Assembly (NCBI GenBank): GCA_027491415.1
Contig: JAOZFH010000063.1
Coordinates: 64,414-128,413, forward strand
Length of the DNA stretch: 64,000 nucleotides
Direction: 5' to 3'
Source: Thermoproteota archaeon
GTDB lineage: Archaea > Korarchaeota > Korarchaeia > Korarchaeales > Korarchaeaceae
The stretch's first letter is position 1, and each line of letters opens with the position of its first letter. Both the position numbers and the translations under genes were made by a program. The notes beneath the pieces were generated by a model, which saw only the letters and a program-made list of their open reading frames with translations, did not search any database and was not told the DNA's origin. Below, piece by piece: positions 35,164 through 37,311 of this stretch.

Positions 35164-36294
35164 ATGTCGAGTTCAGCTGACATCGTGGCCGAGCTCACCC
35201 TGAAAGACCACGAAGCCGTGGAGGCGGCTGCGGAGGCGTTAAACTCGGCGTTCAGGGGGCTGGGAGATCCGGCACCCAGGGTCAAGAGGGCGGCCGACGG
35301 GGAGAGGCTGACCGTGGAGATACCGCGAGACATCGTCGACCCCGCTTCTCCGGCCACCCACTTGACCCAGATGCTCAGGAGCGTCCTCAGGGCAATCCCA
35401 GCTGAGGCGAGGGTGTCCCGCATCGCCATACCCGAGGGGCTGTTCAGGGGGCCCAGGCTGGGGCTCAAGGACGTTCGCAGGTACACCGGCATAAGGGGCC
35501 CGCTGCTGGGGGTCGTGATAAAGGCAGAGAGCCGAGAACCGTTTGAGCTCGCTAAGAGGTTCTATGAGCTTGCCGCGTCCGGCGCAGACCTCGGGTTGGA
35601 ACCGGAGTTCCTAGTCGATCACCCTGACTCGCCCATCTCGGCCCGTGCGTCTCATGCCGCCGACATGATGGACAGGGTGAAGGAGGAAACAGGTAGGAGG
35701 CCGATCTATGTGGTGTCGGTCGAATCGAGAGCCGACGCGCTCGTGGATCGGGTTCAGGAGGCGGCAGACGCCGGCCTTCCGTTCGTGGCGGTAGAAGCGT
35801 CAAGCTTGGCGAACATAGAGGCCATAGCGGCTTTGGACGTCAAGATCGGCGTGTACGCCCGGGGAGGTCCAGGCTACGTCCCCATGCGCTGGCTCTCGCC
35901 CGGCGCGTGCGCCACCCTGCTCAGGCTGGCTGGGGCGGGGATGGTCGAGAGACCCTCGGCTGGCTCGGCGCCGAGGGCCAGCATAGAGGAGACGGACTCG
36001 GCCCTCCTAGGTAAGATTCAGGGGATCGGGAGCGCCATGCCGTCGGCCAGGGGGGTTATGCACCCGGGCTCGGTGGAGGCGAACGTCTCGCTGTTCGGGG
36101 CCAATCAGGTGCTCCTATTCGACGAGGGAGTCTACGACCACCCCTGGGGTTACAAGAGCGGCGTCTCGGCGGCGAGGGCGGCCATAGACGCGGCCCTCAG
36201 GGGCGAGGGGTTCTTCGAGGCGGTGGAGGCGAGCGAGGAGATAAGGGTCGCCGTGGACCGCTGGGGCTACCTCGCCCCCGACGCGGTCCGCTGA
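35164..36294 (+). CDS. RuBisCO large-subunit homologue, form III-like, predicted catalytically inactive
   Basis: FRGPRLG..VR, GVVIK, GAD, RVKEETG, LRLAG, HPG, HP.G..G..A.R.AIDA, WG..P are colinear with form III; KDDE replaced by LEPE. Confidence 0.85.
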   Translation: MSSSADIVAELTLKDHEAVEAAAEALNSAFRGLGDPAPRVKRAADGERLTVEIPRDIVDPASPATHLTQMLRSVLRAIPAEARVSRIAIPEGLFRGPRLGLKDVRRYTGIRGPLLGVVIKAESREPFELAKRFYELAASGADLGLEPEFLVDHPDSPISARASHAADMMDRVKEETGRRPIYVVSVESRADALVDRVQEAADAGLPFVAVEASSLANIEAIAALDVKIGVYARGGPGYVPMRWLSPGACATLLRLAGAGMVERPSAGSAPRASIEETDSALLGKIQGIGSAMPSARGVMHPGSVEANVSLFGANQVLLFDEGVYDHPWGYKSGVSAARAAIDAALRGEGFFEAVEASEEIRVAVDRWGYLAPDAVR

Positions 36295-36309
36295 CACGAC
36301 TGGGGTCGG

Positions 36310-37311
36310 TCAGTAGCTCGTGACGTGGGCCGGGCTCGGAGGCCCTCGCAGGAAGTCGGGCAGGTTCGACCTGGTGAACCAGCCGAACTCCTCCCTGAGG
36401 ATCATCAGGGCTCCCTGGGGCGGGATCACACCCTGCTCGGTGATTATTATGTCGATGTACTCCGGAGGGGTCACGTCGAACGCGGGATTCCTCACCCTGA
36501 TGTTAGGGTGCTGCTCCAAGTAGTCCCTGTCCACCACCTCCGCGGGGTCCCTCTCCTCGATGGTGATCAGCGTGCCGAGCATGGTCTCGGGGGAGAACTT
36601 GTAGGTCTCCGCCGCGACGAAGAAGTTCACCCTCGCCTCGTGGGCGGCCAGGGCTATGGCCGAGGTGCCGATCTTGTTCACCACGGCGCCGTTTGCCGCG
36701 ACTGCGTCGGCCCCAACGACCACGGCGTCTATGGACTCCATGAAGAACCTGGCGGCCGAGTCCACGATCATCGTGACGGGGATCCCGGCGTCGGCGAGTA
36801 TGGCGGCCGTTATCCTGCCTTGGAACCTGGGCCTTGTCTCGGTCGAGAAGACCTCGAACCTCTTCCCCTGCTCCCACGCCTTAAGCAGGACGCTGACTGC
36901 CGCCGTGCTGTGGCAGTGCGTCATGACCCTGTCCCCGTCCCTTATCCTCCTGGCCCCGTACTCGGCTATCCTCTCTACCGCGGTCTTGGAGTTGTGGATG
37001 AAGTCCTCGGCTGAGGTCTTTATCGCCTCCCTCAGCTCGGCTATGTCTGCCCCAGCCTCGTAGGCGTTCAGGCCCCTCAAAACGACGAACCTAACGGCGT
37101 TTGGGAGGGAGACCGCGGTGGGCCGCGTGCTTACTAGGACCCTGGCGGCCTCTAGGATGGCCTCCTTTAGCTCGTCCCTGTCTCCGGTCTCATACTTCTC
37201 GGCGACTATGGCTAGGCCCGAGGCGGCGGCGCGGGCTATCCGACCCGCGCCCCTAATCCTCATCGTCCTGATGTCCTCGGCAATCCTGAACAGCTCGTCT
37301 GGGAGCTTCAA
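36310..37311 (-). CDS. e2b2: Ribose-1,5-bisphosphate isomerase (eIF2B-like)
   Basis: [51 protein letters not shown]. Confidence 0.93.

Follow-up and report, generated by a model that had tools for sequence, protein, structure and literature searches.

A RuBisCO-fold paralogue lacking the carbamate/Mg and phosphate sites is kept under purifying selection in Korarchaeia

The stretch of Korarchaeia DNA analyzed here (64,000 nucleotides, hereafter the window) carries an intact gene for a paralogue of the RuBisCO large subunit (RLP; the name is used for this product and its orthologues in the Korarchaeia clade) that has lost both the carbamate/Mg site and the phosphate sites of the carboxylase. 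The RLP gene is under purifying selection and is not a case of one-off decay, and its distribution among genomes is not tied to that of RbcL, R15P isomerase (R15Pi) or AMP phosphorylase. We think it rather probable that RLP, kept across Korarchaeia and outside RuBP metabolism, is the first bona fide pseudoenzyme on the RuBisCO fold or else a metal-independent enzyme with a remodeled barrel mouth. Tentatively, we favor a non-catalytic RuBisCO-fold pseudoenzyme of a Korarchaeia clade, independent of RuBP metabolism, with its adjacency to R15Pi inherited. The features of the locus, in order of position, are:

33840 to 35129, minus strand: CLP1-type P-loop protein (Pfam CLP1_P, 121 bits; synteny)
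35130 to 35163, no strand: divergent CLP1/RLP intergenic spacer of 34 bp (sequence reading)
35164 to 36294, plus strand: RLP, RuBisCO large-subunit paralogue without carbamate/Mg and phosphate sites (ORF, profiles, fold)
36310 to 37311, minus strand: R15P isomerase, e2b2 (TIGR00511, 436 bits against a cut-off of 314.1; Pfam IF-2B, 325 bits)
37382 to 38164, plus strand: DUF72 protein (Pfam DUF72, 138.6 bits; same synteny block)

The RLP frame opens with ATG, encodes 376 aa without internal stops, and ends in W367-G-Y-L-A-P372; its composition is ordinary, with a GC3 of 0.814 against 0.816–0.884 in seven neighboring genes. Both the intact frame and the full-length colinearity with form III RuBisCO had been pointed out in an earlier reading of the DNA (the sequence-only reading), and the second point is borne out by profile–profile comparison (hhalign) of 24 clade members with 11 bona fide form III sequences (probability 100, E = 1.4e-62, 374 aligned columns). 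A phmmer search of the PDB with RLP returned the DK-MTP-1P enolase 2oej (E = 8.9e-24) and the Thermococcus (T. kodakarensis) form III enzyme 1geh (E = 6.5e-21). The AF2 model (pLDDT 91.6, pTM 0.91) has the large-subunit fold, an N-domain followed by a TIM barrel, and Foldseek superimposes it with TMq values of 0.85 on 2oej, 0.84 on 2d69, and 0.81–0.85 over the form III and RLP structures. Family models place the protein at a distance from the carboxylases: it passes the threshold of Pfam PF00016 (44.9 bits against 30.1), matching only profile positions 219–299 in the C-terminal part, and its best curated-family score, 99.8 bits on the form III model TIGR03326, lies below the cut-off of 497.45, with the genome's real rbcL scoring 676 on the same model.

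The active-site replacements are agreed by three alignments (HMMER, MAFFT against the genome's own RbcL, and hhalign); the spinach numbers are those of the sequence-only reading, mapped via the motifs of the genome's own RbcL and not via the spinach sequence. The motif K201-D202-D203-E204 has become L145-E146-P147-E148, so that K201 and the Mg ligands D203/E204 are no longer present as a set (L145, P147, E148). K175 is retained as K120 and K177 is deleted, the next residue being E. H327 is replaced by E262, loop-6 K334 falls in a gap, S379-G380-G381 reads R296-G297-V298, and G403-G404-G405 reads D320-E321-G322, with the acidic D320 and E321 in place of phosphate-binding glycines; the RuBP phosphate-binding residues are thus gone together with K334. 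In all of these respects (K201, D203, H327, K334, SGG and GGG, each replaced or deleted) the carboxylase active site proved to be lost, as the sequence-only reading had claimed. The one correction concerns H294, which that reading had placed opposite an alanine (A232), whereas the alignments place R233 there, followed by G234 at R295 and G237 at H298. Because the carbamylated lysine, D203, the catalytic histidines, the loop-6 lysine and both phosphate sites are lost, RLP cannot carboxylate RuBP.

Selection on the gene was compared within two genera, g1 (that of the window organism) and g3 (another genus of the same order). The dN/dS of RLP is 0.19–0.29 in g1 (six pairs from four orthologues) and 0.09–0.14 in g3 (seven pairs with dS below 1), and the corresponding values for its neighbors are 0.08–0.31 for CLP1 and 0.07–0.27 for R15Pi. 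Frames are intact in all 20 loci examined; the 'stops inside' flagged by the search are the frame end, where matches run beyond the terminal stop codon. RLP orthologues occur in at least six genera and in 22 of the 38 genomes of the order, in a syntenic block. Conservation, synteny and dN/dS were among the checks named in the sequence-only reading, and the dN/dS values fit its view of an intact, maintained gene. The clade was found here in Korarchaeia only. Matches from outside the order (E = 1e-26 to 1e-6, frames of 414–489 aa) were taken as a group. No viral relatives of RLP were found in viral contigs, nor by tblastn in phage records, and a sequencing-run search for RLP listed no RNA run, the best DNA run containing 0.24 of the words. 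A feature search of the ESM Atlas with RLP gave generic RuBisCO_large clusters only, the top one viral with a score of 0.94, which serves as a lead only.

The RLP clade stands apart in phylogeny. In a tree of 140 rows, its 19 rows form a group (SH-aLRT 100) that belongs neither to the form III-like group of 42 rows nor to the K-D-E RLP group of 79, and an LG+C20 PMSF tree of 69 rows gives the same placement, both trees being unrooted quick searches without the named classical RLP references, including the Archaeoglobus RLP. The clade therefore lies outside the radiation of RLPs that retain K201-D203-E204, and it belongs to form IV/RLP in the broad sense of a large-subunit homologue without carboxylation residues. 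As the 10 representative RLPs of the tree all score below the NCBIfam cut-offs, the tree clades cannot be named from that resource. A basal clade member, P0007, retains E60, T65, K175, K177, E204 and R295, residues it shares with form III RuBisCO, and is 44–45% identical to bona fide form III but 35–37% identical to g1 clade members; the g3 copies sit on longer branches and are 24–27% identical to the window RLP in the clade alignment. The best reading is that the Korarchaeia RLPs form a new RLP clade, one that is small, vertically inherited, and descended from a form III-type RuBisCO.

The archaeal form III RuBisCO of the AMP (pentose-bisphosphate) pathway (T. kodakarensis 1geh/3a12, P. horikoshii 2cwx/2d69) has the same two-domain fold as RLP (TMq 0.81–0.84), and many bona fide archaeal rbcL genes adjoin e2b2, as the RLP gene does. 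Relative to these enzymes, RLP is without K201, D203, H294, R295, H298, H327, K334, S379, G381, G403 and G404, its N-domain, without the E60/T65 segment, is shorter by ~40–50 residues, and some genomes that encode it have neither R15Pi nor AMP phosphorylase. The best PDB match, the DK-MTP-1-P enolase (YkrW/MtnW; G. kaustophilus 2oej, B. subtilis 2zvi), is 25% identical and has a barrel part of similar overall length, but keeps K-D-D-E where RLP has L-E-P-E. RLP scores far below the models for MtnW/YkrW (85.2 against 409 bits on NF007095, 70.8 against 513.6 on TIGR03332), and the Paenibacillus MtnW-type sequences (L041 and L045) fall deep in the K-D-E RLP group, far from the Korarchaeia clade. 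RLP also scores below the cut-off for OiaX, the 3-oxo-isoapionate-4-phosphate decarboxylase (NF042437, 41.7 against 700 bits, with only RLP residues 82–196 matched). RLPs without an assigned reaction are likewise non-carboxylating with key residues partly replaced; their similarity to the window RLP is weak (C. tepidum 1tel/1ykw, E = 5.8e-10; R. palustris RLP2 2qyg, E = 3.5e-8), and the loss is more complete here, where the carbamylated lysine, one metal ligand and the two phosphate sites have all gone. The classical RLP clades, reportedly those of Tabita et al. 2007 (IV-Photo, IV-NonPhoto, IV-DeepYkr, IV-GOS, IV-AMC and the Archaeoglobus RLP), were compared with the window RLP through the scores of their PDB members only.

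Literature searches on Korarchaeota or Korarchaeia with RuBisCO, RuBisCO-like, form IV or pseudoenzyme found no description of this clade. In the parts available to us, PMC12787533 mentions Korarchaeota for form III-b rbcL, deoA and e2b2 only, and its supplementary figures S10 and S11 may show the RLP; the accessible part of bioRxiv 10.1101/2025.11.05.686826 does not mention the clade. Divergent phage 'form IV-like' proteins with the RuBisCO fold, non-carboxylating and with key residues partly replaced, are described by Jaffe et al. (bioRxiv 10.1101/386292). The Methanodesulfokora copy is annotated in one source as a 'ribulose 1,5-bisphosphate carboxylase large subunit-like protein'. Within the families and sequences compared, none of the three outcomes that the sequence-only reading had named as fatal to it was encountered: RLP fell into no family of known activity among the models and trees used, the replacements persisted in all three sequence alignments, and orthologues exist with dN/dS well under 1.

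Not one of the 27 clade sequences has K201, whereas 87 of the 124 further family members aligned with them retain K201-D203-E204; 21 others of the 124 also lack K201, a hint that dead form III offshoots may have arisen repeatedly. The 14 catalytic and ligand-binding equivalents, which do not vary among the 11 form III sequences, have a mean conservation of 0.46 in the RLP clade, compared with 0.51 for the barrel part, and 2036 of 10,000 random sets of 14 positions scored equally low or lower. The K201 position is occupied by L, V, M, A, R, F or I across the clade, and the H294 position by R, T, V, M, N, Y, A or D. The old active-site positions would thus appear to evolve like average ones, on a large-subunit fold that is kept and presumably works as a non-catalytic pseudoenzyme. 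The exception is a small cluster of conserved charges at the predicted barrel mouth, comprising an acidic residue at 146 (24/24 clade sequences), E262, R263 (23/24) and D320 (20/24), which most likely either seals the former pocket with salt bridges or provides a small binding site for some ligand other than a phosphate-rich one. A surface motif, D342...R346-G347-E348 with W367, is clade-invariant (R346-G347-E348 in 24/24 sequences) and may provide self or partner contacts. An acid/Arg/acid cluster on the C-terminal face of a TIM barrel would also suit a new active site.

The alternative that deserves most weight, which we regard as possible though doubtful, is that RLP is a real enzyme with carbamate/Mg-independent chemistry at a remodeled barrel mouth, acting on a substrate that is not a sugar bisphosphate and may be neutral or cationic. 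Its putative active site would comprise E/D146, E262, R263 and D320, with H300 and H326. Consistent with this, purifying selection is strong in several genera, some of them without the RuBP pathway, and the four charged residues, which lie where barrel strands 2, 6 and 8 end C-terminally, are conserved in 18–24 of 24 sequences; the RuBisCO superfamily has, moreover, repeatedly given rise to new enzymes (enolase, isomerase, decarboxylase). However, most positions of the first shell, including those of K201 and H294, differ freely from genus to genus, and such variation is rare among enzymes at 25–40% identity; the characterized family members that we know of all use the K201/Mg site, and the neighboring genes suggest no substrate.

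The gene order at the locus bears on a third explanation, that RLP assists or regulates the AMP pathway as a non-catalytic partner of RbcL or R15Pi in the genera that have this pathway, its g3 copies having drifted to another role. With the last base of the RLP stop codon at 36294 and the minus-strand stop codon of R15Pi beginning at 36310, the two genes converge across the 15-bp gap noted in the sequence-only reading, whose assignment of the neighbor as R15P isomerase is upheld at equivalog level by its TIGR00511 score. The longest R15Pi ORF extends to 37422, and as the family model begins at residue 45 of that ORF, the start at 37311 proposed earlier is plausible. R15Pi orthologues 85–97% identical adjoin RLP in three further genomes (G002, G003 and G004). 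On the other side, the CLP1 gene is divergent from RLP and is a conserved neighbor in genera g1–g4; it shares gene order with RLP only, and no functional tie is implied. The spacer between them has an A/T-rich stretch ~25–30 nt upstream of the RLP ATG, conceivably an archaeal promoter giving a near-leaderless mRNA; the model behind a sigma-70 scan of the spacer is not applicable to archaea. A complex prediction for R15Pi with RLP scored 0.00 against a mark of 0.32, which gives no answer, neither for nor against.

An accessory role draws on the adjacency of RLP and R15Pi in 12/12 genomes that have both genes, on the presence of RLP in 12/15 genomes with RbcL against 10/23 without (counts that are not independent, as the genomes are kin), and on the longer branches of the divergent g3 copies; given these, RLP may have some pathway-related role in genera where the pathway is present. 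The window genome itself encodes, as the sequence-only reading had supposed, an intact bona fide form III rbcL elsewhere, at G000:C12:6054-7334, along with two AMP phosphorylases. On the other hand, none of the 21 g3 genomes has RbcL, R15Pi or AMP phosphorylase above the curated cut-offs, yet 10 of them retain RLP under the strong selection described above, which speaks against a subunit or chaperone of RbcL and against a scaffold for R15Pi. G008 and G011 have RbcL and R15Pi, with a CLP1-R15Pi-DUF72 locus from which RLP is cleanly absent; this counts against the same two roles. A sugar-bisphosphate sensor fares no better, both sets of phosphate-site residues having been replaced, partly by acidic ones (D320, E321). 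Of the sequence-only reading, then, the lost active site and the maintained gene stand, and the three specific roles are not supported. Since some relatives keep RLP without any RuBisCO pathway, it probably has a different job, and we consider an accessory role unlikely. The adjacency carries little weight because the whole block is syntenic, including the unrelated housekeeping crenactin, DUF72 and CLP1 genes: RLP-R15Pi-DUF72-crenactin is conserved as a whole, in the g3 loci where R15Pi is missing (L019–L027) DUF72 directly follows and overlaps RLP on the same strand, and RLP and R15Pi, being convergent, are not co-transcribed. In nine other archaeal loci (L037, L040, L067, L070, L072, L073, L076, L079 and L075, the last on one contig with L046), e2b2 lies directly upstream of a catalytically complete rbcL. 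Under the pseudoenzyme reading, the R15Pi adjacency would be inherited gene order, probably a vestige of e2b2-rbcL pairing, and not a working partnership.

That RLP is a functionless, decaying relic of a duplicated rbcL would suit the loss of almost all catalytic residues and the loss of the gene from 11/21 g3 genomes as well as G008 and G011, but is highly improbable, being contradicted by the selection data (intact frames in 20/20 loci, dN/dS of 0.05–0.29), the clade-specific invariant motifs, the confidently predicted fold and the normal GC3.

To our knowledge, a single K201/Mg enolization machinery serves every characterized member of the RuBisCO superfamily, be it a carboxylase, the MtnW enolase, the MTRu-1-P isomerase or an acid-sugar decarboxylase. 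The gene order suggests how a resident rbcL linked to e2b2 can be retired, with another copy sustaining the pathway. For annotation, RLP genes adjacent to e2b2 can be miscounted as RuBisCO in reconstructions from archaeal MAGs. A lineage without the K201/Mg machinery yet under purifying selection would widen the known uses of the RuBisCO fold, and this meaning would apply even in genomes without the RuBP pathway.

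The RuBisCO-like paralogue (RLP) and the ribose-1,5-bisphosphate isomerase (R15Pi, encoded by e2b2) that faces it occupy the following positions.

35164..36294, + strand: RLP, intact open reading frame of 376 aa
36310..37311, − strand: R15Pi, 15 bases downstream of RLP on the opposite strand, passing its equivalog model (436 bits vs 314)

The intact frame, the ordinary codon usage (GC3 of 0.814, similar to the 0.816–0.884 of seven neighboring genes) and the convergence on R15Pi across a 15-bp gap, the sequence of which was read, were all confirmed as proposed in the sequence-only reading of RLP as a dead, form III-like RuBisCO. 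Every curated RuBisCO/RLP model of NCBIfam scores the protein far under its cut-off (rubisco_III, 99.8 bits against 497; MtnW, 85 against 409; OiaX, 42 against 700), and Pfam RuBisCO_large matches only the C-terminal 80 residues (44.9 bits). Public sources name it ‘hypothetical protein’ or ‘RuBisCO large subunit C-terminal-like domain-containing protein’.

Residues were mapped (spinach numbering for RuBisCO) from three alignments that were independent and in agreement: phmmer to PDB, MAFFT to the genome's own RbcL, and hhalign. The predicted colinearity with form III RuBisCO is borne out by hhalign, which aligned a 24-member profile of the RLPs of Korarchaeia (the clade) with 11 bona fide form III sequences over 374 columns (probability 100, E = 1.4e-62). 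K201-D202-D203-E204 is replaced by L145-E146-P147-E148; K175 is retained as K120 and K177 is deleted; H294, R295 and H298 correspond to R233, G234 and G237, and H327 to E262; the loop position of K334 is a gap; S379-G380-G381 becomes R296-G297-V298, and G403-G404-G405 becomes D320-E321-G322. The replacements listed earlier therefore stand in all three alignments save one, as H294 is faced by R233, not A232. A shortened N-domain is missing the E60/T65 segment. AlphaFold2, given the alignment of the clade, yielded a confident model (pLDDT 91.6, pTM 0.91) with the RuBisCO large-subunit fold; its TMq is 0.85 to enolase 2oej of Geobacillus and 0.84 to form III enzyme 2d69 of Pyrococcus. By the strand assignments of the model, L145, E262-R263 and D320 lie at the C-terminal ends of barrel strands 2, 6 and 8, where catalytic residues sit. 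Alignments and model together indicate a protein that has lost its active site and kept its fold.

RLP belongs to a narrow lineage. A search of 5.8 billion clustered proteins turned up only four close relatives (97, 75, 54 and 56% identity), and phmmer, run exhaustively against 1.84 billion representatives, matched 453 at E < 1e-3, only 5 of them below 1e-30. Among 61 genomes of relatives, RLP or its kin occurred in six genera (g1–g6), all of one order within the Korarchaeia/Korarchaeota, where it is present in 22 of 38 genomes (g1, the genus of the window genome, 4/5; g2, 4/5; g3, 10/21; g4, 1/1; g5, Candidatus Methanodesulfokora, 2/4; g6, 1/2); the copy in one g3 genome, G025, is shorter and more divergent. 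The phylogeny and active-site tabulation show a clade rather than an accident. For the tree, 154 retrieved proteins were filtered to 320–520 aa, with P0001, P0002 and P0004 left out; adding 34 locus ORFs gave 151 rows, and dropping 11 near-duplicates or fragments left 140. In a quick LG+G4 tree the clade forms one group (19 rows, SH-aLRT 100), outside both other groups, one form III-like (42 rows, support 94), the other made up of RLPs in which K-D-E is mostly kept (79 rows, support 95). A hand-chosen subset of 69 rows (16 clade, 21 form III-like, 32 RLP; LG+C20 PMSF, quick search) gave the same picture, with clade support of 100; as the trees are unrooted and the clade long-branched, its place outside both groups is no proof of antiquity. 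The basal member P0007 retains E60, T65, K175, K177, E204 and R295, has rubisco_III as its best curated match (283 bits), and is 44–45% identical to catalytically complete form III enzymes and 35–37% to g1 clade members, which suggests that the clade derives from a form III-type enzyme.

K201 is absent from all 27 clade sequences in the alignment, whereas K201-D203-E204 is intact in 87 of the 124 family members outside the clade. Relatives without K201 are nevertheless not rare in metagenomes (21/124; P0019, P0023, P0073, P0144, P0079, P0106, P0151, P0145, P0089, P0069, P0110 and others). Several of these nest, on different branches, within form III-like sequences that are catalytically complete, which suggests that ‘dead’ offshoots of form III arose repeatedly and independently.

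Within the clade, the 14 catalytic or ligand-binding equivalents, invariant in true form III sequences, are conserved no more than average, with a mean top-residue fraction of 0.46 vs 0.51 for the barrel; among 10,000 random 14-position sets, 2036 scored as low. The exceptions appear to form a small charged cluster at the predicted barrel mouth, comprising an acidic residue at 146 (24/24 sequences), P147 (17/24), E262 (18/24), R263 (23/24) and D320 (20/24). Clade-specific invariants (D342, R346-G347-E348 and W367) are located in the C-terminal helices. We tentatively favor a non-catalytic RuBisCO-fold protein in which the former pocket has been closed or re-purposed. The main rival, a somewhat unlikely one, is that the altered site serves a new, metal-independent enzyme. 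The sugar-bisphosphate sensor proposed earlier fares poorly: because the phosphate-binding glycines have given way to acidic residues and R295, H298, H327, S379 and K334 are lost, a sugar-bisphosphate site is unlikely.

An accessory role in the RuBisCO pathway is improbable. The window genome assembly (1.78 Mb, 96% complete) does contain the intact rbcL and AMP phosphorylase that had been sought.

G000:C12:6054-7334: bona fide form III rbcL (676 bits)
G000:C32:12563-14050 and G000:C17:18274-19785: AMP phosphorylase paralogues, both over the curated cut-off
L003 (G000:C12), 128..1258 (−) and 1471..2802 (+): the rbcL/FBPase_3 pair

Here rbcL divergently adjoins a class V fructose-1,6-bisphosphate aldolase/phosphatase (FBPase_3, 610 bits); most g1 and g2 genomes likewise carry two copies of AMP phosphorylase. 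Of the 38 genomes in the order, 15 have RbcL over its cut-off, 14 R15Pi and 16 AMP phosphorylase. In g3, each was found over cut-off in 0 of 21 genomes, 11 of them at least 95% complete, and yet RLP persists under strong purifying selection in 10 g3 genomes, which speaks against the proposals that RLP is an obligate RbcL subunit or chaperone, or an obligate R15Pi scaffold. A looser link in the pathway-bearing genera is possible, given that RLP occurs in 12/15 RbcL-bearing genomes vs 10/23 others (the genomes are kin and the counts not independent) and that the g3 copies are the most divergent. One g2 genome carries a third RuBisCO-family gene (L050 on G009:C8, 148..1470, −; 440 aa) that keeps K-D-D-E (PF00016, 192 bits; PF02788, 53 bits; TIGR03326, 286 bits), is only 35% identical to P0007 and lies ~10 kb from the dead RLP at 10988..12205.

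That RLP is a decaying relic is very unlikely: Nei–Gojobori dN/dS, far under 1, is 0.19–0.29 among four g1 orthologues (neighboring CLP1, 0.08–0.31; R15Pi, 0.07–0.27; all stop-to-stop frames), 0.09–0.14 in g3 (seven pairs with dS < 1) and 0.05–0.11 in the more saturated g2 and g5 pairs, and the apparent internal stops lie where the open frame closes, the match overrunning its terminal stop codon.

Gene order offers a history for the pairing with R15Pi. The g1, g2 and g4 loci read CLP1(−) RLP(+) R15Pi(−) DUF72(+), with a crenactin gene next; an amidohydrolase takes the place of CLP1 in g5, and g6 retains the RLP–R15Pi pair. The same arrangements recur on seven metagenome contigs, some perhaps the same DNA as the genome loci, and the two genes are adjacent in 12/12 genomes having both. 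The g3 block is CLP1-RLP-DUF72, without R15Pi, and the block of G008 and G011 (g5) is CLP1-R15Pi-DUF72, without RLP (in G011, CLP1 ends 4 bases from R15Pi), so either gene was lost independently from one ancestral block. In nine other archaeal loci (L037, L040, L067, L070, L072, L073, L075, L076 and L079, of which L075 shares its contig with L046; Methanomethylicia, Thermoprotei, Thermoplasmata and other metagenome contigs), e2b2 lies immediately upstream of, and co-directional with, an rbcL with the full catalytic signature, whereas RLP and R15Pi converge and hence are not co-transcribed. On the simplest reading the adjacency is a relic: a RuBisCO gene linked to e2b2 would have been inherited by the Korarchaeia and have given rise to a descendant without catalysis, a second copy elsewhere in the genome would carry the pathway, and the adjacency would have persisted along with the rest of the syntenic block. 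The longest R15Pi frame (36310..37422, −) has a 37–44-residue N-terminal extension beyond the family model and overlaps the start of DUF72; the true start probably lies within the frame, near 37311. Counting the CLP1-type kinase, DUF72 and the genes downstream, the neighborhood is rich in nucleic-acid-handling genes.

37382..38164, + strand: DUF72 protein
38149..42888: downstream block, including crenactin (Actin, 45 bits)
39435..40076: Ogt-type DNA-binding domain protein
40128..41177: RNA 3'-phosphate cyclase RtcA
41215..42888: 557-aa multi-OB-fold RPA-like protein

Elsewhere in the window, a 461-aa frame (30137..31522, −) shows histidine-rich motifs near its N-terminus and a CxxC pair in translation but no Pfam match at E 0.001, and a tRNA (13743..13856, −) probably contains an intron, as its match covers 114 bases where the model has 71 positions.

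A literature search found no description of the clade, and passages of a recent Korarchaeota survey (PMC12787533) mention only form III-b rbcL, deoA and e2b2. Taken broadly, as a RuBisCO homologue that does not carboxylate, the window protein is an RLP; it does not qualify as form III, MtnW or OiaX, and in the unrooted trees does not nest inside the K-D-E RLP radiation. RLP represents a real, conserved and unusual RLP lineage.
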